Below are positions 19,650-40,531 of a DNA stretch of 64,000 nt, piece after piece. The DNA is taken from assembly GCA_964467905.1 (NCBI GenBank), contig CAYXSY010000007.1, forward strand, positions 116 through 64,115, in the 5' to 3' direction. Source of the stretch: an uncultured Planctomycetales bacterium (GTDB taxonomy: Bacteria > Omnitrophota > Gorgyraeia > Gygaellales > Profunditerraquicolaceae). Below the pieces are notes generated by a model. It saw nothing but the letters and a program-made list of their open reading frames with translations, had not been told where the DNA came from and did not search any database. Both the position numbers and the translations under genes were made by a program. Positions within the stretch are counted from its first letter, which is position 1; every line of letters begins with the position of its first letter.

Positions 19650-20378
19650 ATGTCTAAAGATAAAAAAAATTCAGATTACAAAGTTTATATGAAGCAAATC
19701 GAAGCGCTTGCAAAGGTCGCAAGCCTCATTACTTCCGGTATGTATGTAGAAGAACTTTTGCGTTTGATTGTCAATGTTACGGCAGAAGTTATGAATTCTA
19801 AGATTTCGTCTTTGATGCTTTTAGATCCTGATAAAAAGGAATTGGTAATCAGGGCTACGCAATCGATATCAGAGGCTTATAATAAAAAGCCTAATATAAA
19901 AGTCGGCGATGGTATCGCCGGCATAGTGGCGAAAGAAAAGAAGCCGCTGTGTGTTTTAGACGTTAGAAAAGATCCGCGCTATATGAACAGGGATATAGCC
20001 ATAAAGGAAGGGTTGTATTCTTTAGCGAGCGTGCCTATGATAGTAAAGGGAAGACTCAAAGGGGTTATTAATTGTTATACTTCTAAGAAGCATGAGTTTA
20101 CCAAGGGTGAATTAGCTATACTTACTGCTTTGGCAAGTCAGGCAGCAGTGGCTATTGAGAATGCCGAGTTGGATGTGAGGGCGCGTACAGCCGAAGAGGC
20201 CCTTACCAGCCGTAAGATAATTGAGCGCGCAAAGGAAATTATAGCCCAGGAAACAAACATCCTTCCTTCTGAGGCGTACCGCTTGATACAGAAACAGAGC
20301 ATGGACAAGCGTAAAACTATGCGTGAGATTGCCGAAGCTATTATATTAGCTAAAGATGTAACTAATAAAAGTATTTAG
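19650..20378 (+). CDS. GAF-ANTAR one-component RNA-binding antiterminator (paralog 1)
   Basis: N-terminal GAF domain (LRLIVNVTAEVMNS...GVINCYT...AAVAIENAEL). C-terminal ANTAR three-helix region (SRKIIERAKEIIAQETNILPSEAYRLIQKQSMDKRKTMREIAEAIILA). No receiver domain. Confidence 0.85.
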   Translation: MSKDKKNSDYKVYMKQIEALAKVASLITSGMYVEELLRLIVNVTAEVMNSKISSLMLLDPDKKELVIRATQSISEAYNKKPNIKVGDGIAGIVAKEKKPLCVLDVRKDPRYMNRDIAIKEGLYSLASVPMIVKGRLKGVINCYTSKKHEFTKGELAILTALASQAAVAIENAELDVRARTAEEALTSRKIIERAKEIIAQETNILPSEAYRLIQKQSMDKRKTMREIAEAIILAKDVTNKSI

Positions 20379-20385
20379 AAAGACC

Positions 20386-20502
20386 TTGACAGGTTGTTGA
20401 TTTGTGGTATATTCCTTTTAATTGGTGAGTACGAAGACGTCTTACCTTGGAACAAGGGAGACGTCTTTTTATTTTTATAAATAGTGCCTAAAAATTAGGC
20501 AC
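20386..20502 (+). promoter_or_regulatory. promoter plus leader attenuator in front of the Nfn/GltA-like operon
   Basis: TTGACA (20386-20391), 16-nt spacer, TGgTATATT (20405-20413). Terminator: 9-bp stem 20434-20442/20459-20467 and an inner 5-bp stem 20445-20449/20453-20457, followed by TTTTTATTTTT. A competing hairpin 20424-20446 (GGTGAG...CTTACC) could act as an antiterminator. A further 8-bp hairpin lies at 20484-20502, just before the RBS. Confidence 0.65.
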
Positions 20503-24299: not shown

Positions 24300-24554
24300 T
24301 TGACAAGGCTCTAATAGTATGTTATTCTTTTCTTAACAATTTAAAAGAGCACAAGGTTGTGCTTAAGATAAAGGACAAAGGCGTTATATAACAATATAAC
24401 GCCTTTTTCTTTTTTATCCTATTCTATGTGAGAATAATTTTATAAAAGTAAGCCCTTCATGCCCGGTCACTTAGAGGGAGAACGGGGTTTTACTTTTTAT
24501 GTAAACAATGGCGTTTTATGCCGTAATCCGGCATAGAACGCCTTTTTATTTTTT
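24300..24554 (+). promoter_or_regulatory. promoter plus two tandem hexaloop-hairpin/terminator attenuators upstream of GAF-ANTAR paralog 2
   Basis: TTGACA (24300-24305), 17-nt spacer, TGtTATTCT (24320-24328). P1 AGCAC-AAGGTT-GTGCT at 24348-24363. P2 GAC-AAAGGC-GTT at 24374-24385, overlapping terminator 24377-24416 (GGCGTTATAT/ATATAACGCC + T-run). Second unit: AAAC-AATGGC-GTTT at 24503-24516, overlapping terminator 24510-24554 (14-bp stem + TTTTTATTTTTT). Confidence 0.7.
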
Positions 24555-24558
24555 AGCC

Positions 24559-25266
24559 ATGCAAAATTCATTTAATGAACAAATAAAGGCCCTTTCTAAA
24601 ATCAGTAAGGCGATTACTTCAGATTTCTATCTGGAGGATATATTGCGTCTGATTGTTACAGTTACGGCAGAAGTTTTAGATTCTAATATTTGTTCTTTGA
24701 TGCTTATTGATGAGAAAACTGGTGAATTAATTGTCCGGGCTACTCAGAGCGTAAGCGAAGAATACAATAAGAAGATGCCTCTTAAGGTTGGTGAAGGCAT
24801 TGCCGGCAAGGCGGTTGAACATAATAAGGCAATAGCAGTAAAGGATGTTACTAAAGAAAAAGAATATAAACATAAAGATGTCGCCAGAAAAGAAGGGCTC
24901 GTATCTTTGTTATGTGTCCCCATGTCGGTAAAGGGTAAAACAATCGGAGTAATTAATTGTTATACCGCCAAAGCACATAATTTCAGCGATACAGAGATAG
25001 AGATATTGACTACTATTGCCAATCAGGCGGCAGTAGCTATTGAGAATACCGAGCTTATGGTTAAAAGCAGGGTTATCCAGGAAGAACTGGAGACTCGCAA
25101 GAGGATTGAGCGCGCCAAAGGTGTTTTAATGCGTGATGAAAAACTCACTGAGGAACAGGCGTATTTAAAGATCCGTAAATATAGTATGGATAATCGTAAA
25201 AGCATGCGTGAAGTGGCGGAAGCGATTATCTTGGCAGCAGATATGAAGCAATTAATCAGGAGCTAA
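24559..25266 (+). CDS. GAF-ANTAR one-component RNA-binding antiterminator (paralog 2)
   Basis: Clear paralog of 19650-20378, with shared runs LRLIV.VTAEV, RATQS, GVINCYT, AAVAIEN and MRE.AEAIILA. The track start at 24508 lies inside the upstream terminator, so Met at 24559 (MQNSFNEQ...) is taken as the start. Confidence 0.85.
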   Translation: MQNSFNEQIKALSKISKAITSDFYLEDILRLIVTVTAEVLDSNICSLMLIDEKTGELIVRATQSVSEEYNKKMPLKVGEGIAGKAVEHNKAIAVKDVTKEKEYKHKDVARKEGLVSLLCVPMSVKGKTIGVINCYTAKAHNFSDTEIEILTTIANQAAVAIENTELMVKSRVIQEELETRKRIERAKGVLMRDEKLTEEQAYLKIRKYSMDNRKSMREVAEAIILAADMKQLIRS

Positions 25267-25300
25267 GTAGCTCTTTTTGCTGGTTATGAGGTTAATTGTC

Positions 25301-25320
25301 TTAATCCAGGGTTGGGTTAA
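25301..25320 (+). promoter_or_regulatory. isolated ANTAR-P1-like hairpin (7-bp stem, hexaloop AGGGTT)
   Basis: TTAATCC-AGGGTT-GGGTTAA, with one U-G wobble. The loop is nearly identical to the pyrG-leader P1 loop AGGGTA. No terminator follows it. Confidence 0.35.
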
Positions 25321-25368
25321 GCTAAATGGCCAGCGACGTGTATAACAAAAGAAGGGAGGCAAGGTTAT

Positions 25369-27023: not shown

Positions 27024-27212
27024 ATGGATAACAAAGGGTTATGTATCAATTGTGCTCACGATAAAACTTGCAGCTTTGTAAGATTTCCTTTGATTTTGCA
27101 GTGTGAAGAATTTGATATCGCTTCTGTTAGCACGGCAGAGCAAAAGTTGCAAAGTTTGAAAAAGAGCGCGCAGTATAAACCAGCTACAGAGCAAGAATAT
27201 ACTGTAGAATAA
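27024..27212 (+). CDS. small Cys-rich protein coupled to the GltS-like gene
   Basis: 62 aa with CINCAHDKTCSF...LQCEEF (a 4-Cys pattern). The start lies 2 nt after the upstream stop. Function unknown. Confidence 0.45.
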   Translation: MDNKGLCINCAHDKTCSFVRFPLILQCEEFDIASVSTAEQKLQSLKKSAQYKPATEQEYTVE

Positions 27213-27244
27213 CATTTGTTGCATTGCCAGGTGATTTATGGCTG

Positions 27245-27279
27245 GCCATGGGGCGTAACACTTGCCCCATGGCTATTTT
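27245..27279 (+). terminator. intrinsic terminator after the GltS-like operon
   Basis: A 10-bp GC-rich stem GCCATGGGGC/GCCCCATGGC followed by TATTTT. Confidence 0.75.
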
Positions 27280-27292
27280 GATTAACTTAATC

Positions 27293-27399
27293 TTGACAAA
27301 ACCCTCTGATATGGTAAAATAACTATACATAGGAGCAGTAGCAAGACAGAGAAGTCTTTTAGTAGAGCAAATGCTACTAAAAGACTTTTTTTATTTTTT
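27293..27399 (+). promoter_or_regulatory. promoter plus AAGAC-N6-GTCTT hairpin and leader terminator of the hydrogenase operon
   Basis: TTGACA (27293-27298), 16-nt spacer, TGgTAAAAT (27312-27320). Hairpin AAGAC-AGAGAA-GTCTT at 27343-27358 overlaps the 5' arm of a 13-bp terminator (27353-27365/27374-27386) followed by TTTTTTTATTTTTT. Confidence 0.7.
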
Positions 27400-27412
27400 A
27401 GCTGGTTTTCTA

Positions 27413-28852
27413 ATGAATACACAAATATCGTTGTCTTATCTTATCTTTGTACCATTGTTTGGAGCGTTAAGCTTGCCTTTGTTAGGGAAAATTTCAGCTT
27501 ACCTTAGGAATTCATTAGCTTTAGTTCTTACGCTCGTCCCACTGGTTATTTCTGTCTTGTTATGGCCTCATGTTTCTTCCGGCGGAGTTATCATCTCAAA
27601 TATTACCCTGCCTTTGGGTTTTAATCTTAACTTGCAAGCAGATGCCTTGGCAGTTTTTATGGCCTCTGTCTCATCATTTATAAGCGCGTTAATAGTTGTA
27701 TATTCATTTTCTTATATCAGCCATTACAGGAATCAAAATGAATACTATTTTTTTGTTGTCTTATTTGTCGCCGCGATGGCAGGGCTTGTTTATTCTGCAA
27801 ATTTGATTTTCTTGTATATATTTTGGGAGATTACCGCTATTGCCAGCTGGCGCCTGATAGGTTTCTTTAGAAATAAAGAGTATGTTTTAAAAGCGGACAA
27901 GGCTTTTATGATTACTGTCTTTGGCGCTCTCTTGATGCTTTTGGGTTTTATCATGATATATACACAAACGGGGTCTTTTGATATTCCGGCTATAAAGGAG
28001 GCGATAAAGGCAAAACCTTTATCGGGCTTGGTTATTGTGTTAATACTGGCGGGGATATTGTCTAAATCTGCTACTTTGCCGTTTCAGACCTGGCTTCCTG
28101 ATGCCGGTATTGCGCCATCTCCTGTGACTGCGCTTTTGCATGCCGCGGTTTTAGTTAAAATAGGTGTTTATGTATTCGCACGTTTATTCGTAGTTAATTT
28201 TCCCCTTATTGATTCCTGGTCTAATGTTGTCTTGCTGATAGCTGCCGCAAGCACTTTAATATCTGCCGGGTGCGCTTTTATTGAGTCTGATTTAAAGCGC
28301 ATCATCGCTTATTCTACTATAAGCCAGATAGGTTTTATTTTCTTAGGGTTTGCATCAGGCACTTCGATAGGTATCTTCGGAGGCCTATTGTATATTCTTA
28401 TACATGGTTTAGGCAAGGCGGGGCTTTTCTTATGCGCGGGAGTTATAGAGCAGAATTGCGGGACTAAAGATATAAATAAACTCGGGGGGCTGGCAAAGAC
28501 TATGCCTTTTACCGCAGCTGCTTTTTTAATTTGTGCTTTTTCGATAATGGGCGTGCCTCCCACGGGAGGTTTTTTTAGTAAATATATGGTACTTGCAGGG
28601 GCTTTTACCGGAGGACATTATTTAGTTGCTTGGGTTTTCCTTGTTTGTGCGGTTTTTACCGTACTGTATCTTTTGAGAGTATTTTGTGCTGTATTCTTAG
28701 GCGGGCTCAAGATAAATGCTGGAGAGGGCACGCGCTCAATGGTATCTTGCATTGTTATATTGGCGGTATTGTCCATAGCTGCAGGGGTATTTATGGGGTA
28801 TTTATCCGTTCCGCTAGATGATATAACTAAACAAATGCTAGCATTAAAATGA
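27413..28852 (+). CDS. hydrogenase membrane subunit, Mrp/NuoN-M-type antiporter-like
   Basis: Polytopic, with proton-antiporter-M family signatures (WEITAIASW, SATLPFQTWLPDA, AYSTISQIG). The track start at 27371 lies inside the leader terminator, so Met at 27413 (MNTQISL) is used. Confidence 0.8.
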   Translation: MNTQISLSYLIFVPLFGALSLPLLGKISAYLRNSLALVLTLVPLVISVLLWPHVSSGGVIISNITLPLGFNLNLQADALAVFMASVSSFISALIVVYSFSYISHYRNQNEYYFFVVLFVAAMAGLVYSANLIFLYIFWEITAIASWRLIGFFRNKEYVLKADKAFMITVFGALLMLLGFIMIYTQTGSFDIPAIKEAIKAKPLSGLVIVLILAGILSKSATLPFQTWLPDAGIAPSPVTALLHAAVLVKIGVYVFARLFVVNFPLIDSWSNVVLLIAAASTLISAGCAFIESDLKRIIAYSTISQIGFIFLGFASGTSIGIFGGLLYILIHGLGKAGLFLCAGVIEQNCGTKDINKLGGLAKTMPFTAAAFLICAFSIMGVPPTGGFFSKYMVLAGAFTGGHYLVAWVFLVCAVFTVLYLLRVFCAVFLGGLKINAGEGTRSMVSCIVILAVLSIAAGVFMGYLSVPLDDITKQMLALK

Positions 28853-30669
28853 CACAAACTATATTATTACCTATAATTCTTTTGCCTGCTGTTTTAGGTG
28901 GCTTATTGTTTCTGCTGCCGCTTAGGGCATCTAGAATTGCATTTTTGCTGTCTTCTTTAGTTAACGCAATCTTAGCATTCTCTCTCTTTGGCAAACAGGC
29001 AGATTATATTGTCCCCTGGGCAGGTTTTGGGTTGGATTTTTCTCTGAGACTATATCAGTTCAGCGGTTTTATTCTGGCTGCATGCGCTTTCTTTGGACTA
29101 TTAATAGCTGTCTACTCGTTTAAGTTTATGTCGGATAGACACAATCAGAAACAGTTCTATGCCTGTTTATTGTTGTCGCTTTCTTTTGTTAATGGGGCAG
29201 TCTTAGCCGACAATCTGGCATTATTATTGTTTTTCTGGGAAGCCCTGTTGATTACGATGTTCGTTATGATTAATGCAGGCTCTGATCACGCATATCATAC
29301 CGCCAAGAAGGCATTTATTATCGTAGGTTTTTCGGATATCTGTCTTATGGCCGGGGTGATTCTTGCAGGTATTTTAGGCGGGACGCTTAATATCGCCGGT
29401 ATGCATTTATCTTGTAGTGGATTATCTAACTTAGCTTTTATTTTGCTTATCATTGGAGCTCTTGCTAAGGCAGGCTCTATGCCGTTTCACACCTGGATAC
29501 CGAATGCAGCCGTTGATTCCCCGCTGCCATTTATGGCTTTTTTCCCTGCAGCTATTGAGAAATTGCTGGGGATATATTTTTTAAGCCGCATATGTTTGGA
29601 TATTTTTAAACTTGAAGCTTCATCAGCCATGAGTACGCTTTTGATGGCTGTGGGGGCTTTTACGATAATACTGGCTGTTATGATGGCATTAATTCAGAAG
29701 GATTACAAGAGGCTGCTTTCTTATCATGCTATAAGTCAGGTTGGATATATGGTTTTGGGTATAGGCACTTGTCTGCCCGTGGGGATAGTGGGTGGTATCT
29801 TTCATATGATTAATCATGCCTTGTATAAGAGCTGCCTTTTTCTTACTGCTGGTTCGGTTGAAAAGCAGACTGGTACAACCGAGCTTAGTGTCTTAGGGGG
29901 CTTATGGCGTAAGATGCCGGTTACTTTCATTTGTTTTACGGTCGCCGCGCTCTCTATTTCCGGAGTTTTCCCTTTTAATGGCTTCTTTTCCAAGGAGCTC
30001 ATATACGATGCTGCTTTAGAGAGAGGATTAGTTTTTTACATTGCGGCTATTCTAGGTTCATTCTTTACAGCGATTTCTTTCTTAAAGTTAGGGCATGCTG
30101 TGTTTATAGGTAGAAGCCGTAAAGATTATCCGCAGCTGAAAGAAGCCCCGTATTTGATGCTTTTGCCTATGATCGCGATTGCTTTAATTTGTATCATATT
30201 TGGCGTATTTAATTACCTGCCTCTTAGGAACTTAATACAGCCTATTATAGCAGACAGGCTTATGGGGCATGATTATAGCGGTATGCCGCATAATATTATA
30301 ATTATTGCTATAACCTTGATAGCATTATTAGGTGCTTTTATGCACCATATTTTTGCTGTACGTATAATGGGCAGCCCGCTTAAAGCAGCAGATGATATAT
30401 ATCATGCTCCTGTTATCAGGCGTGTATATAATTGGGCTGAAAGAGGTTTCTTTGATCCGTATATTATAGGTATGAAACTAATTGATAAATTGTCTATGTT
30501 TTTGATGTCTTTAGACCGTTTAATAGATTGGTTTCTGGGAGATTTTTGTGTTAGTCTCTCAAATAGAACCTCCCTGTTAATCAGGCAGCTTCATTCGGGT
30601 TATTACGTTATTTATATTATCTGGTCGCTTATAGGAGCAGCATTCGTTGTGGTTTTTGCGATAAGATAA
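28849..30669 (+). CDS. hydrogenase membrane subunit, NuoL/MrpA-type antiporter-like
   Basis: 606 aa and polytopic (FWEALLITMF, GSMPFHTWIPNA, SYHAISQVGYM), with an extended C-terminal region. ATGA overlap with the upstream gene. Confidence 0.8.
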   Translation: MTQTILLPIILLPAVLGGLLFLLPLRASRIAFLLSSLVNAILAFSLFGKQADYIVPWAGFGLDFSLRLYQFSGFILAACAFFGLLIAVYSFKFMSDRHNQKQFYACLLLSLSFVNGAVLADNLALLLFFWEALLITMFVMINAGSDHAYHTAKKAFIIVGFSDICLMAGVILAGILGGTLNIAGMHLSCSGLSNLAFILLIIGALAKAGSMPFHTWIPNAAVDSPLPFMAFFPAAIEKLLGIYFLSRICLDIFKLEASSAMSTLLMAVGAFTIILAVMMALIQKDYKRLLSYHAISQVGYMVLGIGTCLPVGIVGGIFHMINHALYKSCLFLTAGSVEKQTGTTELSVLGGLWRKMPVTFICFTVAALSISGVFPFNGFFSKELIYDAALERGLVFYIAAILGSFFTAISFLKLGHAVFIGRSRKDYPQLKEAPYLMLLPMIAIALICIIFGVFNYLPLRNLIQPIIADRLMGHDYSGMPHNIIIIAITLIALLGAFMHHIFAVRIMGSPLKAADDIYHAPVIRRVYNWAERGFFDPYIIGMKLIDKLSMFLMSLDRLIDWFLGDFCVSLSNRTSLLIRQLHSGYYVIYIIWSLIGAAFVVVFAIR

Positions 30670-30695
30670 GGGAATAAAAAAGAAAGGTTTCTAGA

Positions 30696-32129
30696 GTGCC
30701 GTCATTTTTCATTTTAGTCCCGTTTTTCTTGCTGGTATTTATTAATATACCGTTCAGGAATATTTCTAAATATTGTTATTTTTGGGCGCCGGCGTTTTTA
30801 TTTTTACTCCAGGCATGTCTTGTTATTCTGAATCCTTTGTTGTTCTGGAGTGTTTATCCTGACCCGTTCGGAGCATTCTTTTCTTTTGGTTTGTCAGTGG
30901 ATAAGCTTAGCCTTATTGCTTTATTTTGCATAGGCCTTGTAGCATTGATATCAATAATGGTAGGTAAGGCGACCATAGAAGATACACGCAGGAGGTTTTA
31001 TTTTGTAAATTTAATATTAATCTGTGTTATGGGCATGAATGCGGCCGTTCTATCAACCGATATATTTTCCTTGTATGTATTTATTGAAATAACCGCTTTG
31101 TCATCTTTTTTGCTGATTGGTATCTTCCGGGATAAATTCGGCATAGAAGCAGCTTTTAAATATATGATACTTTCTTCTATCGCCACGGTATTTATGCTTT
31201 CTTCTATCGGGTTATTTATTCTTATGGCAGGAGGGACGTCATTTACCGCAATATATGGGGCTTTTGCTGGAGGAACAGCTAATTTTCTTCTGCAGCTTGC
31301 GGTGGTATTATTTGTCTGCGGGCTTCTTATTAAATCTGGGGTTATCCCGTTCCACGGTTGGCTTCCGGATGCTTATGCGGCTAGTCCCGCTGCCGCTTCA
31401 ATACTGTTGGCTGGGATTGTGACAAAGATATGCGGAGTTTATGTATTGTTGCGTCTTTTTATTTCTGTTTTCTCTGTTTACCCTGGACTAAAAGAAGCGA
31501 TTATGATTTTGGGTTTGGTTTCGATTTTTGTCGGCGCATTTGCCGCCATTACCCAGAATAATCTAAAGCGTATGTTGTCCTACTCGAGCATAAGTCAGGT
31601 AGGCTATATTATCTTAGCCTTAGGATGCGCAACCCCGCTTGCGTTTTGCGGAGCAATCTTTCATTTTCTAAATCATGCCATATTCAAATCGCTTCTTTTT
31701 GTTAATGCTGCGGCTATTGAGAAGGCAACAGGCATGATAGATATAGATAAAATAGGCAGTAAAGCAGTATCGATGCGTCTTACCGGATTCACAAGTTTAT
31801 TTGGTTTCTTTTCTGCTGCAGGCATTCCGCCTTTTGCCGGATTCTGGAGCAAGCTTGTTATTATTATTGCGCTATTAGCATCCGGCAAGGTACTTTATGC
31901 AGGCGCTGCCATAGTTGCCAGCATATTAACAGTGGCATATTTTCTTTATTTGGAAAGGGGACTTTTCTTCAGGAGCGATGACAAAGCCGAACCCCAGTCT
32001 TTAAATAAAGTTTCTTTTAATCTCATTTTCCCCCAGGTCCTACTGGCCCTGATTACTATTGGTATGGGATTAGGTTTTCCTTTTATATTTAATACCTGGA
32101 TATTGCCTCTGGAGGGCCTGGTGCGATGA
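30696..32129 (+). CDS. hydrogenase membrane subunit, NuoM/MrpD-type antiporter-like
   Basis: 477 aa and polytopic (FIEITALSSF, GVIPFHGWLPDAY, SYSSISQVGYI). GTG start. Confidence 0.78.
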   Translation: MPSFFILVPFFLLVFINIPFRNISKYCYFWAPAFLFLLQACLVILNPLLFWSVYPDPFGAFFSFGLSVDKLSLIALFCIGLVALISIMVGKATIEDTRRRFYFVNLILICVMGMNAAVLSTDIFSLYVFIEITALSSFLLIGIFRDKFGIEAAFKYMILSSIATVFMLSSIGLFILMAGGTSFTAIYGAFAGGTANFLLQLAVVLFVCGLLIKSGVIPFHGWLPDAYAASPAAASILLAGIVTKICGVYVLLRLFISVFSVYPGLKEAIMILGLVSIFVGAFAAITQNNLKRMLSYSSISQVGYIILALGCATPLAFCGAIFHFLNHAIFKSLLFVNAAAIEKATGMIDIDKIGSKAVSMRLTGFTSLFGFFSAAGIPPFAGFWSKLVIIIALLASGKVLYAGAAIVASILTVAYFLYLERGLFFRSDDKAEPQSLNKVSFNLIFPQVLLALITIGMGLGFPFIFNTWILPLEGLVR

Positions 32130-32629
32130 GCGAGCTTCAATTAGATATGGTTTTATTATTTACATTGCTTATATCCGCGTTATGGACAGTTATGACCGTC
32201 AGGCTTATCAGGGCTATAGTAGGGCTGGCCCTAACCAGCGCCGTACTTTCCATGATAATGTATAGGCTTTCATCGCCTTTGGCGGCTGTCTTTGAATTAT
32301 CGGTTTGTGCGGGATTGATTTCTGTAATATTTGTTACTACTGTTAGCTTTACGCAGCGCGTAAGTAAGGAACGTTTGATTGCGCGCCGCAAGGAAAGATT
32401 TATGAAATTCTGGTATCTGCCTTTTATTCTCGTGGCAGGAGCGTTGGTATTAGTTTATTACACAAAAATACCTAAGAACATCGCTGTGCACCCTAAGGTT
32501 GATATGGATGTACGTAATATGCTCTGGAATATAAGGCACCTTGATTTGCTAGGGCAGATTATACTGCTTCTAACAGGTTCGATAGGAGTTGTAGTTTTGT
32601 TTAAGGAGTTCAAAGATGATAAGTCTTGA
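32126..32629 (+). CDS. MnhB/MbhD-E-like small membrane subunit
   Basis: 167 aa with 4-5 TM helices and a conserved acidic residue in VFELSVCAGLIS. Its position between the antiporter-like and NuoK-like subunits fits this assignment. Confidence 0.55.
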   Translation: MSELQLDMVLLFTLLISALWTVMTVRLIRAIVGLALTSAVLSMIMYRLSSPLAAVFELSVCAGLISVIFVTTVSFTQRVSKERLIARRKERFMKFWYLPFILVAGALVLVYYTKIPKNIAVHPKVDMDVRNMLWNIRHLDLLGQIILLLTGSIGVVVLFKEFKDDKS

Positions 32630-32939
32630 GTCGGCGTATCTTTTCTGGTATTTCAGCATTTTTATAATACTTTTATTTATAATTGGTGTTTACTGTATTC
32701 TGGCCAGCTTTAATTTAATCAGGGCTTTAATTGGTCTTGAGATATTAATTAAGGCTGCTACGCTGTTAATAATCTTATCCGGGCATATAAGCGGCAGGGA
32801 AGATTTGGCTCAAGCGGTAGTTATTACACTTATAGTTATCGAGGTTGTAGTTATGGTGGTCGCGGGTGGTATTGCCCTATGGGCATTTCGTCATAATAAG
32901 ACGATTGACCCCAGAAAACTTACAAATTTAAAAGGCTGA
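32616..32939 (+). CDS. NuoK/MrpC/MbhG-like membrane subunit
   Basis: 107 aa with 3 TM helices and membrane-embedded Glu residues (GLEILIKA, VIEVVV). Confidence 0.6.
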   Translation: MISLESAYLFWYFSIFIILLFIIGVYCILASFNLIRALIGLEILIKAATLLIILSGHISGREDLAQAVVITLIVIEVVVMVVAGGIALWAFRHNKTIDPRKLTNLKG

Positions 32940-32943
32940 GACT

Positions 32944-33279
32944 ATGTTTAAGGATATTTTGATTACTCCACCAGCAGTATTCCTTATTATTTTCATTGTG
33001 ATGGTACTATTAGCGCGCATCTTATCTGCTTTAGCGTTTCACAGAAAGGTTCCTTCCAAAGAATCAAAGAAGGCATATGCCTGCGGAGAGGATTTTAAAG
33101 AACATCTAATCCAGCCTGATTACAGCCAGTTTTTTCCTTTCGCGTTTTTCTTTACCATACTTCATGTTGTGGCTTTAGTCATAGCTACCGTACCCATGGA
33201 AAGCCTTGAGACTTTTGCTATCGCAGTTGTGTATATTATCGGGGCGGTTATAGGTTTATCCATACTTTTGAGGAGATAA
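32944..33279 (+). CDS. NuoA/MbhI-like membrane subunit
   Basis: 111 aa with 3 TM helices. YACGED matches the NuoA PYECG loop position, and it lies immediately upstream of the NuoB-like gene as in nuo operons. Confidence 0.5.
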   Translation: MFKDILITPPAVFLIIFIVMVLLARILSALAFHRKVPSKESKKAYACGEDFKEHLIQPDYSQFFPFAFFFTILHVVALVIATVPMESLETFAIAVVYIIGAVIGLSILLRR

Positions 33280-33714
33280 TTGATGGGGTTAGTAAAGAAA
33301 GTAGTTCTGTGGTCACAGACTAAATCTCCGTGGGTTTTGCATTTTAACACCGGAGCGTGCAATGCCTGCGATATAGAAATTGTTGCCGCCTTGACTCCGC
33401 GGTATGATTTGGAGCGTTTTGGCGTGCAGCTTAAAGGTACCCCCAGGCATGCAGATATCTTATTATGTTCAGGTCCGGTTACAAAACAAATCGAATGCCG
33501 CCTGAAGAGAATTTATGAGCAGATGCCTGAGCCAAAATTTGTAGTAGCTGTGGGTACTTGTGCTTGTTCCGGAGGGGTGTTCAACGGCTGTTATAATGTT
33601 GACGGCGGTATTAATAAGGTAATTCCGGTTTCAGCCTATATACCCGGATGTCCTGCCAGTCCCAAGGCAATTATTGACGGAGTAGTTAAGCTTTTAGCAA
33701 GCGTCAAAGATTAA
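33280..33714 (+). CDS. [NiFe] hydrogenase small subunit, NuoB/MbhJ-type
   Basis: Four Cys for the proximal [4Fe-4S] cluster in the NuoB pattern (GACNACDIE, GTCACSGG, IPGCPASP). Confidence 0.88.
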   Translation: MMGLVKKVVLWSQTKSPWVLHFNTGACNACDIEIVAALTPRYDLERFGVQLKGTPRHADILLCSGPVTKQIECRLKRIYEQMPEPKFVVAVGTCACSGGVFNGCYNVDGGINKVIPVSAYIPGCPASPKAIIDGVVKLLASVKD

Positions 33715-33738
33715 ACTTTCTTTAAAGGATAGAAAACG

Positions 33739-34200
33739 ATGCAGGAAGATATTATTAAGGATAAGCTGGAATCAAGATTTAGTTATCTCAAGGGCGCTGT
33801 TTCTGTCTCCAGAATTTCACGTCTATCTATTGAACTAAAGAAAGAAAACCTTAATGAGGTTTTAGATTATTTGATTCATGAGTTTGGATTTAAAAAGCTT
33901 TCTACGATTACCGGGATTGATTTAGGTGATAACTTAGAGTTAATTTATCACTTAGATGGAGGAGGGAGCTTGATCATCAATGTAAAGGTTCGTCTAGAGA
34001 GGGATAACCCCCGCATTAATACGGTAATCCCGTATTTTTTGAATGCTGATACATACGAACGCGAGCTCGTGGATTTATTAGGCGTTAATGTAGATGGTTT
34101 GCCTAAGGGTAACCGTTATCCGCTCCCGGATAACTGGCCGCAGGGGCAGCATCCTTTACGTAAAGATTGGCCGGGCAAGATTAGCCAAGGAGGTGTTTAA
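33739..34200 (+). CDS. NuoC/MbhK-like hydrogenase subunit
   Basis: 153 aa with NuoC-type motifs (ERELVDLLGV, YPLPDNWP). Sits between the NuoB- and NuoD-like genes. Confidence 0.8.
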   Translation: MQEDIIKDKLESRFSYLKGAVSVSRISRLSIELKKENLNEVLDYLIHEFGFKKLSTITGIDLGDNLELIYHLDGGGSLIINVKVRLERDNPRINTVIPYFLNADTYERELVDLLGVNVDGLPKGNRYPLPDNWPQGQHPLRKDWPGKISQGGV

Positions 34201-34201
34201 A

Positions 34202-35440
34202 ATGCATGATTCTGGTGAAGTAAAGATTCCTATCGGTCCTCAGCATCCGTCTTTGAAAGAGCCAGAGAGCTTCTTGATAACTTTGCGAGGAGAGAAAATT
34301 ACGGCTTCCAGTATAAGATTAGGATATAACCATCGTGGCATAGAGAAGGCATGCGAACAGAGGAGCTATACCCAGGCGTTGTATTTGGTTGAACGTATCT
34401 GCGGGATATGTTCCCATTCGCACGCAACCTGTTTTGTCCATGCCGTAGAAGAAATCGCCGCCTTAGATGTTCCTAAAAGAGCAAAGTATATACGTACTTT
34501 AATCTCGGAGCTGGAGAGAATCCACAGCCACCTTCTCTGGTTAGGTGTAGCAGGGCATGAGATAGGGTTTGATACGCTGCTTATGTATACCTGGAGGGAT
34601 CGCGAGATAGTAATGGATATATTAGCGCTTTTAAGCGGCAATCGTGTAAATTACGGAATGAATACTATAGGCGGAGTAAGGCGTGATATATCAAAAGAAC
34701 AGATAGACGAGGTAGTCAAGGGCATCAAGATTTTAGAAGAACGCACGAAATATTATATAGATTTAGCTAAGGGTGAGACTACGCTTGCAAAGAGGCTTTC
34801 AGGAGTAGGTATTTTATCTAAGGATGATGCATTGAAGTTAGGGGCAGTTGGTCCGGTAGCCAGGGCATCTGGCATAAAATGCGATGTGAGAAAAGATGAC
34901 CCTTATTCTATATATCCGGAACTTGATTTTGAAGTTGTCACAAGTGATTGCTCTGATGTGTACGGACGTACCCTTGTGCGTTTAGGCGAACTTATGCAAT
35001 CTTATAGTATGATACAGCAGATTCTTAAGAAAATTCCTGATGGACCGCTTGTTGTGAAGGCGCCGCGTAAAATACCTGCTGGAGAGGCAGTCAGCCGGTA
35101 TGAGGCTCCGCGCGGAGAAGATTTTCATTATGTAAAATCAAATGGTACGGAGAAACCCGAAAGGGTTAAGGTCCGCGCTCCTACCTTAGCCAATATTCAG
35201 GCAGTTTCGCGTATGCTTGAAGACAGGTATTTAGCGGATATGCCTATAGTTGTGGCGGCAATAGATCCATGTTTTTCCTGTACAGATAGACTTATTTCTT
35301 TGCGCCATGGGCAAAAAGGCAGCAGAGAAGTATTGAGCTGGGAGGCGTTGCGCTTAAGGAGCATAGAGTGGTACAAAAAAAGAGGAATAGATTTTTCAAA
35401 GATAAGCCAGAGGTTTTCAAATAAATTGGCAATAAGATAA
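34202..35440 (+). CDS. group 4 [NiFe] hydrogenase large (catalytic) subunit, NuoD/MbhL-type
   Basis: Both Ni-Fe ligand motifs are retained: RICGICSHSH near the N-terminus and DPCFSCTDR at the C-terminus. AAGGAGG lies 8 nt upstream of ATG 34202. The track start at 34094 overlaps the previous gene and is rejected. Confidence 0.9.
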   Translation: MHDSGEVKIPIGPQHPSLKEPESFLITLRGEKITASSIRLGYNHRGIEKACEQRSYTQALYLVERICGICSHSHATCFVHAVEEIAALDVPKRAKYIRTLISELERIHSHLLWLGVAGHEIGFDTLLMYTWRDREIVMDILALLSGNRVNYGMNTIGGVRRDISKEQIDEVVKGIKILEERTKYYIDLAKGETTLAKRLSGVGILSKDDALKLGAVGPVARASGIKCDVRKDDPYSIYPELDFEVVTSDCSDVYGRTLVRLGELMQSYSMIQQILKKIPDGPLVVKAPRKIPAGEAVSRYEAPRGEDFHYVKSNGTEKPERVKVRAPTLANIQAVSRMLEDRYLADMPIVVAAIDPCFSCTDRLISLRHGQKGSREVLSWEALRLRSIEWYKKRGIDFSKISQRFSNKLAIR

Positions 35441-35442
35441 AT

Positions 35443-36384
35443 ATGGCAAAGATTATTTTACAAATCCTTATCTTTCCCGGTTTCCTTTTTCTTTTTATGT
35501 TCGGGCTTTTCGCCGAATACCTGGATCGCAAGCTTTATGCCCGTTTTCAGAATAGAATTGGTCCACCGTGGTTTCAGCCGTTAGCCGACTTTATAAAATT
35601 ATTGAGTAAGGAAGATATAGTTCCTGAAGAGGCCGATGCCAGGATATTCAAGCTTATGCCAGTTTTTGCGCTTACGGCTACAGTGAGCGCGTTTTTATAT
35701 ATCCCTACCTGGAGTAAGGAGGCCATTTTTTCCTTTAACGGAGACGTCATAGTTGTCTTATATCTGTTGACTATCCCGACTTTGACTTATTTTCTCGGCG
35801 GGTGGTATTCGCGTTCAGTTTATTCTATGATAGGTGCTATACGTTCTTTGACCCAATTGTTTGCTTATGAGGTGCCGCTTTTTATGACAATACTGGCTTC
35901 GGCATTACTGGCAGACAGCTGGTCTCTGAGTAATATGGTCAGTTTTTATAATGCCCATCCCTGGTATTGGCTTTTTAACATACCGGGATTTTGTATCGCT
36001 TTGATTTCCTTATTGGGTAAGTTAGAGAGGGTGCCGTTTGATATTCCGGAAGCAGAGACTGAGATAGTCGCGGGAAGCTTTACTGAATACAGCGGCAGGC
36101 TCCTTGCGCTTTTTCGTTTGTCTTTGGATATAGAGTTAGTCGTCGGAGCATCTTTATTAGCAGCAGTCTTTATGCCGTTCGGTTTGGGCTTTCATTCATT
36201 ACTGGGTTTTGTATTATATATCGTTGAAACTTTATTTATTATAGGGGCGGTTGCTTTCTTACGCTCGATATTTGCGCGCCTCAGGTTAGATCAGATGATT
36301 GCTGTTTGCTGGAAATATTTTGCCCCTGTGGCGTTTTTACAGGTTCTTCTTAACTTGATTTTGAAAGGAATACTTCCAAGATGA
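35443..36384 (+). CDS. NuoH/MbhM-like membrane subunit
   Basis: 313 aa and polytopic, with NuoH signatures (RKLYARFQNRIGP, FAYEVPL, ERVPFDIPEAETEIVAG). Confidence 0.85.
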   Translation: MAKIILQILIFPGFLFLFMFGLFAEYLDRKLYARFQNRIGPPWFQPLADFIKLLSKEDIVPEEADARIFKLMPVFALTATVSAFLYIPTWSKEAIFSFNGDVIVVLYLLTIPTLTYFLGGWYSRSVYSMIGAIRSLTQLFAYEVPLFMTILASALLADSWSLSNMVSFYNAHPWYWLFNIPGFCIALISLLGKLERVPFDIPEAETEIVAGSFTEYSGRLLALFRLSLDIELVVGASLLAAVFMPFGLGFHSLLGFVLYIVETLFIIGAVAFLRSIFARLRLDQMIAVCWKYFAPVAFLQVLLNLILKGILPR

Positions 36385-36773
36385 GTAGGCCAGGTAAGGT
36401 TACTAGGCAGGTTTTGTCTTCTTTGACCAAGAAACCGGCAACTATAAATTATCCGCGCCAGGCATCCCCTATGCCTAAAGGATTCCGCGGTAAACTTAAA
36501 TTTAATCCCGATCTTTGTATAGGGTGCCGTATGTGCATGCGTGATTGCCCTACGGGAGCAATAGAAATACGCAAAGTAGCCGATAAAACATTCGAGGCAG
36601 TAATAGATTTGGGTAAATGTATATATTGCGGACAATGTGCGGATTCCTGTATAAAAAAAGCCATACAGCTGACAGGCGATTTCGAGCTTGCCGAGCTTGA
36701 TTATAAGAAGCTTAATATTATTTTTAAGAATGAACCATCTGAAGGAAGCTCTCAGGGGCAAGCTAAAGAATAA
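36381..36773 (+). CDS. 2x[4Fe-4S] ferredoxin subunit, NuoI/MbhN-type
   Basis: CIGCRMCMRDCP and CIYCGQCADSC motifs. ATGA overlap with the upstream gene. Confidence 0.85.
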   Translation: MSRPGKVTRQVLSSLTKKPATINYPRQASPMPKGFRGKLKFNPDLCIGCRMCMRDCPTGAIEIRKVADKTFEAVIDLGKCIYCGQCADSCIKKAIQLTGDFELAELDYKKLNIIFKNEPSEGSSQGQAKE

Positions 36774-37227
36774 GCACAAAATTGTTGTCTTAGGTATAGG
36801 TTCTGATTTCAGGGGTGATGATGCCTCTGGGCTTATGGCCGCTAGAATTGTTTTAAGAAGGATATCCAGGCGTAAGACGCCAGGCAGAATTAGCGCGGTC
36901 TTTGCAGAGTCAGTTCCTGAAAATATCACAGGTTTAATCCGTAAGATAAAACCTGGCTACGTTATAGTTATTGATTCTGCGCATATAGGTAAGCAGGCTG
37001 GAGATTTTTGTGTCATTGAGCCCAGCGATATAGAAAATAATCTTGTCAGTACCCATAAAGTGTCTTTGGACGTGTTCTCTAGATATCTTGAGCAGAGTAT
37101 AGGTTGTAAAATGTTTATCGTTGGGATACAGCCTAAGTCTATAAAATTCGGTTCTTCTGTTACTAAACAGGTAGCATTAGCCGCAAAAAAAGTAGCCGTT
37201 ACGTTAATTGAGCTTGACAAGGCCTGA
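36730..37227 (+). CDS. hydrogenase maturation endopeptidase (HycI-like)
   Basis: KIVVLGIGSDFRGDDASG, then DSAH and VSTHK. Met at 36730 is chosen; the track start at 36688 lies deeper inside the previous gene. Confidence 0.75.
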   Translation: MNHLKEALRGKLKNKHKIVVLGIGSDFRGDDASGLMAARIVLRRISRRKTPGRISAVFAESVPENITGLIRKIKPGYVIVIDSAHIGKQAGDFCVIEPSDIENNLVSTHKVSLDVFSRYLEQSIGCKMFIVGIQPKSIKFGSSVTKQVALAAKKVAVTLIELDKA

Positions 37228-37359
37228 TTATATGGTATAATTTACTTGTAATAGATAAGAAAGACAAAGATGTCTTCAGGCAAATAGGCCTGAAGATTTT
37301 TTATTCTCTAGGACTAAGGCGTCCTTTTATCCGGTGGTGGGTAGAGGGACGTTTTTTTT
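37214..37359 (+). promoter_or_regulatory. promoter plus two tandem hairpin/terminator units upstream of the sigma-factor gene
   Basis: TTGACA (37214-37219), 16-nt spacer, TGgTATAAT (37233-37241). AAGAC-AAAGAT-GTCTT at 37261-37276 overlaps terminator TCTTCAGGC/GCCTGAAGA + TTTTTT (37273-37302). GGAC-TAAGGC-GTCC at 37311-37324 overlaps a second stem (37320-37328/37343-37351) followed by T8. Confidence 0.65.
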
Positions 37360-37375
37360 GTTTTAAAGGAGAGCC

Positions 37376-37900
37376 ATGAGTGATTTTGAGATTTTATTAA
37401 AAAGAATATCGCCGGTTTTAAAAAGAATAACCTTTAAATTAGGCGGATATCATACTTTTCTTAACGAAGAAGATTTATATCAGGAAGCCCTGGTATTTTT
37501 ATGGCAAAAATTAGGCTTGGGCGAGCTTTCTGATAAGACGGATAGTTATATACTACAGGGTTGTTATTTTCATCTTAAGAATTATATAAGAAAAAAATAC
37601 AAGAAGATTAATTTTATAAGCATAGATAATATTATAAATGCTGAAGAAGATAACACGCGCAGTGGTTTTTCATTGAAAGATGAGAAATCGCTTTATTACA
37701 GAGACGAGCTTAATGCCAGGTTTATTGCGGATTCTATACGCAATAACGGGTTAGACGATAGAGAAAAAGAGATTGTGGGCTATTATGCGCAGGGTCTTAC
37801 TACCAGGGACATAGGGAAACGATTAGGCCTTTCCCATGTACGTATAGTAAAAATAACCGCCGAAATACGGGTTAAATGCCGCAAGCATATAGATTATTGA
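37376..37900 (+). CDS. ECF-like sigma-70 family factor (regions 2 and 4 only)
   Basis: Region 2 is EDLYQEALVFLWQK. Region 4 HTH is REKEIVGYYAQGLTTRDIGKRLGLSHVRIVKI. No anti-sigma gene is evident next to it. Confidence 0.65.
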   Translation: MSDFEILLKRISPVLKRITFKLGGYHTFLNEEDLYQEALVFLWQKLGLGELSDKTDSYILQGCYFHLKNYIRKKYKKINFISIDNIINAEEDNTRSGFSLKDEKSLYYRDELNARFIADSIRNNGLDDREKEIVGYYAQGLTTRDIGKRLGLSHVRIVKITAEIRVKCRKHIDY

Positions 37901-37971
37901 TTTTGTTGTTACCAATTCATGTAAATTGTTACTTGTATAAGTGAAACACATTGATGTGTAGTAGTAAAGCC

Positions 37972-38009
37972 AAGGATGCTTAAGTTTTAAGTATCCTTTT
38001 TTTGTTTTT
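37972..38009 (+). terminator. intrinsic terminator after the sigma-factor gene
   Basis: A 12-bp stem AAGGATGCTTAA/TTAAGTATCCTT (one G-U pair), 3-nt loop, then TTTTTTTGTTTTT. Confidence 0.75.
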
Positions 38010-38012
38010 ATC

Positions 38013-38066
38013 AAGACGTTGGTGTCTTTTTGGCATTGGAGTCGCCAGGAAGGCGCCATTTTTTTT
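38013..38066 (+). promoter_or_regulatory. AAGAC-N6-GTCTT hairpin plus U-run, then a GC hairpin plus T8; alternatively a sigma54-like -24/-12 element
   Basis: AAGAC-GTTGGT-GTCTT at 38013-38028, followed by TTT. CGCC-AGGAA-GGCG at 38043-38055, flanked by TGG/CCA and followed by T8 (38059-38066). TGGCAT-N5-TCGC at 38031-38045 matches the GG/GC spacing of sigma54 promoters. Confidence 0.4.
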
Positions 38067-38092
38067 GCGCAACCAGAAAAAGGAGAGGTTTT

Positions 38093-40464: not shown

Positions 40465-40531
40465 AAAAAGATGTTACCAAAGTACAGGTTTATTTACTTG
40501 TATATATAGATAATCAAAGCTCGTTTTTTTA

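Follow-up and report, generated by a model that had tools for sequence, protein, structure and literature searches.

The operon for an MBH-type group-4 [NiFe]-hydrogenase in an uncultured Omnitrophota bacterium is preceded by a short leader which, with a probability of about 70%, is an ANTAR-type, protein-dependent attenuator of transcription, in a minimal form with a single hexaloop hairpin. Leader and operon lie in a stretch of 64,000 nucleotides (the window; positions 116 to 64,115 of GenBank contig CAYXSY010000007.1, numbered here from its first letter), in which eleven hydrogenase genes and a gene for a HycI protease occupy 27413..37227 on the + strand. Shared leaders and synteny support a place for the hydrogenase in the same regulon as ammonium assimilation. 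This link had been put forward in a first-pass annotation of the window, and it is strengthened here by the conservation of the leader in other Omnitrophota and by the repeated neighborhood of the operon with nitrogen-assimilation and GAF-ANTAR genes. We infer in addition that expression of the hydrogenase would depend on nitrogen and, in the mechanism set out below, that a protein would bind the hairpin, with a given ligand, direction of regulation and physiological purpose.

The hydrogenase leader and its conservation

The leader begins at a sigma-70-type promoter (27293..27320, + strand; 11 of 12 consensus matches), made of TTGACA at 27293-27298, a 16-nt spacer and a TG-extended TAAAAT at 27315-27320, with the predicted transcription start site (TSS) at about 27327-27329. 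Some 15 nt later begins the hairpin (27343..27358, + strand), recognized in the sequence and in orthologous copies, in which AAGAC (27343-27347) and GUCUU (27354-27358) enclose the loop AGAGAA (27348-27353). As in ANTAR targets, this is a six-base loop with A in position 1 and G in position 4 (A1 and G4). The hairpin runs into an intrinsic terminator (27353..27399, + strand; minimum free energy -21.9 kcal/mol, z = -4.7), whose arms AGTCTTTTAGTAG (27353-27365) and CTACTAAAAGACT (27374-27386), as RNA AGUCUUUUAGUAG/CUACUAAAAGACU, form a stem of 13 bp around an 8-nt loop. The sense-strand stem of 13-18 pairs, its stability of -21.9 kcal/mol and the U-tract directly after it (T7-A-T6, ending at 27399) are all those of an intrinsic terminator. 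The first hydrogenase gene starts 13 nt past the U-tract at ATG 27413, and its close homologues, of 479 amino acids, start at the equivalent position. The promoter, the A1/G4 hairpin, the 13-bp terminator sharing its 3' arm, the T-run and the 13-nt distance were thus confirmed as first annotated.

The segment GUCUU at 27354-27358 is common to both structures, being the 3' arm of the hairpin and the basal 5 bp of the terminator; the hairpin thus shares its 3' part with the 5' arm of the terminator, and the two folds are mutually exclusive, another trait of ANTAR-target RNAs. According to folding, the terminator is the default structure of the leader RNA. The hairpin alone has -3.2 kcal/mol and is too weak to compete unaided with the terminator; a fold in which it is forced is less favorable by about 10 kcal/mol. 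In that fold an unpaired AAGAC separates what is left of the upper stem from the U-tract, so that intrinsic termination should be disabled.

The motif AAGACNNNNNNGTCTT (AAGAC-N6-GTCTT) is present exactly three times in the window, at 27343, 37261 and 38013, against 0.01 expected, and three copies were reached in 0/100 shuffles; the recurrences at 37261-37276 (loop AAAGAT) and 38013-38028 (loop GTTGGT) had already been noticed in the first pass. Neither a hexaloop scan nor folding gave an upstream hairpin (P1) between the predicted TSS and 27343, so the leader does not have the two hexaloops of classic ANTAR targets. No Rfam family reached its gathering score in the whole window, and 27200-27450 gave chance-level matches far below gathering. 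Having the loop, the terminator overlap and nearby candidate readers of ANTAR-target RNAs but only one hairpin, the leader is not a plain member of this group.

The leader was compared among 160 loci (L numbers) with relatives of the first hydrogenase subunit, taken from species-representative genomes and metagenomes, and three contigs from close relatives. Almost all relatives of this first protein are annotated as Omnitrophota or Omnitrophica. The promoter, the AAGAC-hexaloop-GTCTT hairpin and the overlapping terminator also precede the orthologous operon in other Omnitrophota, on at least 13 contigs. Leaders of this AAGAC class stand directly before the operon in L002, L004, L013, L022, L033, L088, L090, L092, L098, L108, L113 and L116, and in degenerate form in L014 and L016; in L001 and L010, an AAGAC-type leader precedes the membrane pyrophosphatase gene hppA, with the hydrogenase directly after it. 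The hairpin is also present in the amtB-type leaders of L016 and L112. The loops seen were AGAGAA, CATGAT, AAAGAT, ATTGAA, TACGAT, AGAGAT, TAAGAT, AAGGGT, AGAGAC, ACAGGC, AATGAT, AAAGAA and GTTGGT: G4 is found in 14/14 six-base loops associated with a promoter or terminator, A prevails in position 5, and positions 1-3 are variable. The 3' arm of the hairpin overlaps the terminator in all orthologues of the AAGAC class and of the GGGC class described below.

Between the predicted TSS and the hairpin there are 8-20 nt of leader across orthologues. In the group of L002, L022, L090, L092 and L098 this distance is 8-9 nt, which makes a second hairpin upstream physically impossible. An apparent P1 in the L013 leader was rejected, as it is not conserved in the nearest relatives, L108 and L113. 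Judged from the orthologues, the conserved unit of the hydrogenase leader is the single hairpin. In two relatives (L081 and L083), one with 89% and the other with 83% identity to the window in the first hydrogenase protein, identity in the transcribed part of the leader reaches 97% and 95%, as compared to 85% and 79% for the coding DNA and 68% and 58% for third codon positions. The -35 and -10 elements are also kept in both, with diverged spacer and upstream DNA, and in L083 the sequence before the promoter can no longer be aligned. By these identities, the whole leader is under strong purifying selection.

In an alignment of hydrogenase leaders only, the AAGAC/GTCTT stem is invariant or nearly so in the main class and gives no covariation signal; since it never varies there, covariation is uninformative. 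The terminator has three pairs with compensatory changes among orthologues. Variant stems were sought in all hydrogenase upstream regions as any hexaloop hairpin overlapping a strong terminator, with the loop unconstrained. This search found TGGGC-ACTGAA-GCCCG (L132), GGGC-AAAGAA-GCCC (L118, directly after gltBD), GGC-AAAGAA-GCC (L094), GGC-GAAGCA-GCC (L064, Velamenicoccus archaeovorus) and GAT-TAGGAT-GTC (L102). In a gap-free alignment of 20 hairpins, two pairs switch from A-U to G-C, 89% of cells pair and G4 is present in 20/20, a covariation that is supportive but biased, because these hairpins were chosen for pairing. A statistic of loop composition for all hexaloops at any terminator-like site was discarded, as the permissive terminator finder was swamped by false positives from coding regions.

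Some other features of these leaders were observed. A conserved UAUGCUA(C/G) is located in the terminator loop and 3' arm of the window (27366-27380) and of L002, L004, L013, L022, L090, L092, L108, L113 and L116. In constrained folds of L013 and L022, the 5' leader (AGUAG/GCGUA) forms an outer helix with the conserved UAUGCUAC of the terminator loop, which is inconsistent across clades; it is possible that this pairing would extend the antiterminator in some of them. The first hydrogenase gene is not preceded by a Shine-Dalgarno sequence, and its start codon is 0-15 nt past the U-tract in all AAGAC-class leaders. The ATG at 27371 was dismissed as a start codon or leader peptide, since it is within the terminator loop and homologues start at the equivalent of 27413; the ATG conserved in the terminator loops of these leaders was dismissed in the same role, being out of frame in L108.

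In L001 (49-2458) and L010 (3688-5985), the hairpin TAGAC-AAWGAW-GTCTT and a consensus promoter precede a gene for an H+/Na+-translocating pyrophosphatase (PF03030), and the hydrogenase follows after 17-25 nt, which suggests that ion pump and hydrogenase form one co-regulated unit. In L010 it is also possible that GTCTT pairs alternatively with a downstream AAGAC at the terminator 5' arm, as a three-state switch.

Nitrogen genes and candidate readers around the hydrogenase

The operon was identified by Pfam and NCBIfam matches. It encodes three antiporter-like subunits of the NuoL/M/N type and subunits similar to NuoJ, NuoK, NuoA, NuoB, NuoC, NuoD, NuoH and NuoI. The NuoD-like large subunit (at about 34200-35440) has both Ni-Fe cysteine motifs, RICGICSHSH and DPCFSCTDR, the solved chain most similar to it is MbhL of P. 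furiosus (6CFW_L, E 6e-103), with HycE of E. coli ranking lower, and the protease matches HycI with E 1e-28. With the cysteine motifs, the NuoB-like subunit, the antiporter module and the maturation protease all present, the operon is, by its predicted products, a genuine group-4, MBH-type [NiFe]-hydrogenase, in agreement with the first assignment. The membrane arm is complete and complex-I-like, with three antiporter-like subunits and homologues of NuoJ, NuoK, NuoA and NuoH, and the best NCBIfam score of the large subunit is to NuoD/FpoD, though the Ni-Fe cysteines and the HycI protease are kept. By this composition, the architecture is an intermediate between MBH and complex I.

The operon is flanked on both sides by genes related to nitrogen and its regulation: GAF-ANTAR gene 1, an nfnAB/sudAB-like pair, gdh, GAF-ANTAR gene 2, a Glu-synthase-like gene, and genes for an ECF-like sigma factor, AmtB, GlnB, type III glutamine synthetase (GS-III), gltB, gltD and pyrG-carAB; a 125-amino-acid Fis-type helix-turn-helix (HTH) protein is encoded among them. 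All genes of the window, which has 41% GC, are on the + strand. By an intergenic hexaloop scan and folding of leaders, at least nine leaders within 30 kb were found with a G4 hexaloop hairpin whose 3' side overlaps an intrinsic terminator. They stand before the nfnAB-like genes, an ANTAR gene, the sigma factor, amtB-glnB, GS-III, gltBD, pyrG-carAB and the hydrogenase. Five of them, before genes of nitrogen metabolism, have the canonical dual form. Dual hairpins precede the gene for GAF-ANTAR protein 2 (24347 and about 24370), GS-III (40532, 40563), pyrG (49423, 49447) and the amtB unit (37946; 38013 and 38031); the leaders of gltB (42906), of the hydrogenase (27343) and of the sigma gene (37261) have a single hairpin. 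The previous suggestion that the hydrogenase has the same kind of leader as the nitrogen genes therefore stands as to the two GAF-ANTAR genes and the G4 hexaloops overlapping nitrogen-gene terminators, and is refined in that the hydrogenase and sigma leaders have one hairpin, not two.

The presence of ANTAR-domain proteins in the vicinity, two of them in the window, is also typical of ANTAR targets. GAF-ANTAR protein 1 (ANTAR1; 19650..20378, + strand) and GAF-ANTAR protein 2 (ANTAR2; 24508..25266, + strand, its true start being downstream of 24550) have ANTAR domains with Pfam E-values of 1e-17 and 1e-20. The C-terminus of ANTAR1 aligns to EutV (6WSH/6WW6), with the equivalents of Arg142, Lys149, Tyr164, Met172 and Arg175 kept. 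Its GAF domain is nearest to those of PtsP (EI-Ntr) and NifA, which are sensors of nitrogen status, so 2-oxoglutarate or glutamine would be plausible ligands. Orthologues of ANTAR1, with 72-76% identity to it as opposed to 52-57% to ANTAR2, are encoded immediately before the AAGAC-class leader of the hydrogenase in L013, L088, L108 and L113. Because of this proximity, ANTAR1 is the preferred candidate for the reader of AAGAC-class hairpins.

The hydrogenase operon lies among nitrogen-assimilation or GAF-ANTAR genes in about 22 of the loci compared, despite short flanks. It is preceded by gltB-gltD in L003, L012, L030, L117 and L118, and adjoins GS-III in L005, L086, L091, L123 and L149, amtB-glnB in L016, L112, L121 and L123, nfnA-gltD-like-gdh in L146, and ANTAR genes in L013, L018, L058, L086, L088, L108 and L113. 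This recurrent synteny supports a functional link of the hydrogenase to nitrogen independently of the leader. Other leaders were also observed before the same operon. In L075 (5794-5919) and L086 (3816-3953), the orthologous operon comes directly after a c-di-AMP riboswitch (RF00379; scores of 72 and 62 bits against a gathering score of 38). Other conserved leader types are found about 150 nt upstream of the hydrogenase start in L003, L012, L044 and L058, and in L146 and L149; two of these are TAAAAT-...AACCAACCTTGTTGCAAGGCTTTTT and a promoter-proximal terminator AATTCACTCC...GGAGTGAATT, neither of which matched an Rfam family. When leaders designated type 2 (L003, L012, L044, L058, L025, L045) were inspected for hexaloops, TTATC-N6-GATAA hairpins were seen in some of them. 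In a metagenome-assembled genome of Clostridia (L009), there are apparent dual hairpins upstream of the operon with no convincing terminator.

Among the other attenuators of the window, all on the + strand, the leader of the sigma-factor gene (37214..37363) has a consensus promoter at 37214-37241 and the hairpin AAGAC-AAAGAU-GUCUU (37261-37276) overlapping a terminator at 37272-37297, followed by a second attenuator in which AGGAC-UAAGGC-GUCCU (37310-37325) overlaps a terminator at 37316-37355. The leader shared by a gene of unassigned function (276 amino acids), amtB and glnB (37946..38067) consists of two tandem attenuators. The first is formed by ACAC-AUUGAU-GUGU and a terminator at 37972-37998, and the second by AAGAC-GUUGGU-GUCUU as P1 (38013-38028) and UGGC-AUUGGA-GUCG as the second hairpin, P2 (38031-38044), overlapping a terminator with its U-tract at 38060-38067. 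The nfnAB/sudAB-like leader (20386..20477) has a consensus promoter, the degenerate hairpin AGUAC-GAAGAC-GUCUU (20428-20443) and a terminator at 20434-20467; the loop and 3' arm of this hairpin together make up the 5' arm of the terminator. In the first pass, AAGACGTCTT had been seen here as the same stem with zero spacing. The sequence is indeed present inside the terminator (20434-20443), although it is better read as the loop GAAGAC and the 3' arm GTCTT of the degenerate hairpin AGTAC-GAAGAC-GTCTT; a perfect version of the arrangement, AAGAC-AGAGAC-GTCTT, is found in L016 at 2299.

The leader of ANTAR2 has the dual hairpin (24347, about 24370) with a terminator at 24377-24406, and then a second attenuator at 24503-24550. 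The latter comprises AAAC-AATGGC-GTTT, a terminator at 24510-24542 and a T-run, and its hairpin is the same as P2 of the pyrG leader (49447). Since the mechanically called start of ANTAR2 (24508) is inside this attenuator, the true start must be further downstream, and two attenuators in series suggest autoregulation of this gene. Two loop classes can be distinguished in the window: ANNGGC (24370, 24503, 37310, 40563, 49447), in which GGC and the 3' arm begin the terminator and which resembles the Geobacter GnfR site CAGGCAANGGCGCC, and NNNGAW on AAGAC/GUCUU stems (27343, 37261). These may be separate target classes of the two ANTAR paralogues.

A motif of TTACCAA-N13-15-TTACTTGTAT was observed upstream of the amtB-unit and GS-III leaders, and likewise after the sigma orthologue in L016 (window 37909-37939, 40474-40504 and 37242-37250; L016 2197-2233), and the window has three copies of TTACTTGTA, with 0.46 expected. 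This motif may be a promoter for the ECF-like sigma factor (37376-37900). As the sigma gene is itself behind an AAGAC attenuator, a regulatory cascade would result if this were so. An 8-bp hairpin with an A1/G4 hexaloop and no terminator, CTTAATCC-AGGGTT-GGGTTAAG (25300-25321), is located upstream of the Glu-synthase-like gene (25369), and may be an ANTAR site working by another route, such as translation or stability. The unit formed by this gene and a 62-amino-acid Cys-rich open reading frame ends at a strong intrinsic terminator (27243..27275, + strand; 13 pairs, 8 of them GC, and a T-tail), which insulates the hydrogenase promoter from upstream read-through. The Cys-rich frame (27024-27212; CxxC...C...C), between the Glu-synthase-like gene and the hydrogenase leader, is 87% identical in the close relatives L081 and L082, and gave no family match.

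Proposed mechanism and alternative explanations

According to the mechanism that we favor, RNA polymerase would start at the strong constitutive promoter and, about 15 nt later, transcribe AAGAC-AGAGAA-GUCUU. With no protein bound, the 13-bp terminator would take GUCUU from the 5-bp hairpin, and transcription would stop 13 nt before the hydrogenase start codon. An active GAF-ANTAR protein, most likely ANTAR1 responding to a signal such as 2-oxoglutarate or glutamine, would clamp the hairpin, with G4 flipped onto the conserved tyrosine. GUCUU being withheld, the residual upper stem would be 4-5 nt away from the U-tract, termination would fail and the hydrogenase operon would be transcribed. The crystal structure of EutV with RNA gives a model for this contact: a flipped-out G4 stacks against Tyr164, the hexaloop is plugged by Met172, A1 has no specific contact and the stem is held via its backbone (PMC8934654). 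The invariant G4 and free A1 of the Omnitrophota leaders match this structure.

The same proteins would read similar hairpins before the nfnAB-like genes, the sigma factor, amtB-glnB, GS-III, gltBD, pyrG-carAB and one ANTAR gene, and given such shared readers we propose that the hydrogenase is co-induced with nitrogen assimilation. The purpose would be to keep low-potential (ferredoxin) electrons and ion-motive force in balance, or to provide them, for an assimilation that consumes NADPH and ATP. Enzymes of the NfnAB type would use reduced ferredoxin and NADH to produce NADPH for GDH and GOGAT. The MBH-type enzyme would vent surplus reduced ferredoxin as H2 while pumping ions, or would run in reverse on the gradient, with H2 reducing ferredoxin. 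The pyrophosphatase co-transcribed in L001 and L010 could supply the gradient for such a reversed hydrogenase.

Several observations weigh against this mechanism. The classic EutV antitermination required both hairpins in vivo, and the hydrogenase leader has only one. L098 retains the terminator with a 7-nt loop without G4, the hairpins of L014 and L016 are degenerate, and loop A1 is not conserved, being C, T or G in several orthologues. The covariation of the stem is weakened by the choice of hairpins mentioned above. A near-invariant AAGAC/GUCUU is not expected if the backbone alone is read; possible reasons for it are a joint constraint with the GAAGAC arm of the terminator, reading of the stem sequence by one paralogue, or recent common descent. 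Finally, other Omnitrophota have different leaders before this operon, such as the c-di-AMP riboswitch of L075 and L086, which indicates that nitrogen control would be specific to lineages and not universal.

A more elaborate form of the ANTAR mechanism would have two orthogonal channels, in which ANTAR1 reads the single, sequence-fixed AAGAC-NNNGAW-GUCUU and the other paralogue reads the ANNGGC dual hairpins on assimilation genes. The ANTAR1 channel, for which a single hairpin would suffice, would switch on the hydrogenase, NfnAB, the sigma factor and, in some genomes, the pyrophosphatase. We regard this elaboration as conceivable but rather doubtful.

It is improbable that the small hairpin is not bound by any regulator, and that the leader is a constitutive leaky attenuator or 5'-end stabilizer setting the expression level, with AAGAC kept through its likeness to GAAGAC of the terminator. 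The terminator dominates thermodynamically, it is retained in L098, L014, L016 and L102 where the hairpin is damaged or altered, and unrelated promoter-proximal terminators precede many Omnitrophota hydrogenase operons, all of which would be in accordance with such a passive role. Against this role are the invariant loop G4, the strong purifying selection on the whole leader, the recurrence of the same hairpin before regulatory and nitrogen genes, and the ANTAR1 orthologue that adjoins the element in four loci. A reading of the hairpin by some other trans-acting factor (an RNA-binding protein, a small RNA or a direct ligand), with a signal that may be redox, H2 or ion status, seems to us just as improbable. 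The c-di-AMP riboswitch before some orthologous operons and the ion-pumping pyrophosphatase joined to others suggest that ion or energy signals matter, and the NNNGAW loops of the AAGAC class are unlike the ANNGGC loops of most nitrogen-gene leaders. On the other hand, a hairpin of 16 nt is too small for a riboswitch aptamer and matched nothing in Rfam, the G4 hexaloop is the signature of ANTAR targets, and the same hairpin is P1 of the dual ANTAR motif before amtB.

The least probable explanation, raised as an alternative in the first pass, is that AAGAC-N6-GTCTT is a palindromic DNA operator at which a dimeric protein (a mini-NtrC/Fis-type HTH protein, Lrp/AsnC or other repressor) blocks elongation or initiation. 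In its favor, the repeat is perfect, its arms are nearly invariant across at least 13 orthologous leaders, as would be expected of half-sites, two copies are placed at about +16 to +35 relative to consensus promoters, and HTH proteins are encoded nearby. Against it, the conservation of the spacer is strand-specific (G4, usually A5) and not mirrored (C at position 3 in 1/14), in every case the 3' arm doubles as the base of a sense-strand intrinsic terminator, which would be pointless for an operator, the distance to the promoter varies, with the copies of amtB leaders (38013; L016, 2299; L112, 307) placed after a terminator and far from the promoter, some lineages or leaders have GGGC/GCCC or AGGAC/GUCCU stems with the loop and terminator overlap kept, and ANTAR proteins with intact RNA-contact residues are present.

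Relation to known ANTAR systems and significance

The nearest characterized counterparts of the putative ANTAR attenuator are the eut attenuators read by EutV/EutW in Enterococcus faecalis (PMC3369931, PMC8934654), which also have a G4 hexaloop whose 3' side overlaps the terminator, mutually exclusive folds, and a reader with the residues Tyr164, Met172, Arg142, Lys149 and Arg175, the equivalents of which are kept in ANTAR1. Unlike these, the hydrogenase leader has one hairpin and 8-20 nt of 5' leader, with no room for P1; its A1 is variable and its stem nearly fixed (AAGAC/GUCUU). Its candidate reader has a GAF domain as sensor rather than the phospho-receiver of EutV, and the target is a hydrogenase instead of ethanolamine-utilization genes. 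The minimal ANTAR motif was redefined from the EutV structure as a single hexaloop, and the authors asked where such sites act (PMC8934654). In the literature searched, the term single hexaloop in connection with ANTAR was found only in that paper, by Walshe, and in its preprint.

ANTAR attenuation of nitrogen genes is already established. In Geobacter sulfurreducens, GnfK/GnfR controls nif, glnK and amtB by antitermination, GnfR binding a conserved CAGGCAANGGCGCC that overlaps terminators (PMC2995071). This system resembles the one proposed here in having an ANTAR regulator in a nitrogen regulon and a conserved site overlapping terminators, and its site could be read as a GGC-AANGGC-GCC hexaloop hairpin, similar to the ANNGGC loops of the window and to the GGGC-AAAGAA-GCCC variants, which would be a precedent for a sequence-conserved, essentially single site. 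It differs in that GnfR is a response regulator phosphorylated by a kinase, in contrast to the GAF sensor found here, and in the sequence of the stem. ANTAR nitrogen regulons were also predicted in Desulfotomaculum and Pelobacter (PMC3369931; Ramesh 2012), where, as in the window, attenuators are numerous (13 in D. acetoxidans) and distributed among glutamate synthase and other operons of nitrogen metabolism, but those have two hairpins each and were detected by a covariance model of the dual-hairpin motif. No hydrogenase is listed among ANTAR targets in PMC2995071, in PMC3369931 and the supplements searched with it, or in a 2025 review, and PMC3369931 with these supplements lists no NADH-dehydrogenase-like target.

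The NasR-nasF leader of Klebsiella oxytoca is likewise an ANTAR antiterminator of a nitrogen-assimilation operon, but NasR has a NIT domain as sensor, the hairpin that it binds has no overlap with the terminator, and the target is nitrate assimilation. For NasR, Chai and Stewart reportedly observed in 1998/99 that one upstream hexaloop hairpin is sufficient for binding, its A1 and G4 being critical.

What would be new in the Omnitrophota leaders is a natural family of single-hexaloop attenuators across many genomes, which was predicted by the 2022 EutV-RNA structure and is undocumented for transcription attenuation. If the two-channel arrangement were true, these leaders would give the first natural example of a single-hexaloop ANTAR attenuator with specificity for the stem sequence, and nitrogen assimilation would have the ion-translocating hydrogenase, possibly an H2-driven ferredoxin reductase, as one of its dedicated parts. 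A stem that hardly varies and two classes of loop also provide a system for asking how paralogous ANTAR proteins discriminate their targets, and the leader is a simple signature by which metagenome annotators may predict condition-dependent hydrogenase expression in Omnitrophota. The kind of target is new as well, since an energy-converting, ferredoxin-linked, ion-translocating hydrogenase, in some genomes together with a membrane pyrophosphatase, would belong to a nitrogen regulon. This suggests that nitrogen assimilation in such uncultured anaerobes may be provisioned with low-potential electrons or ion-motive force via H2 metabolism.

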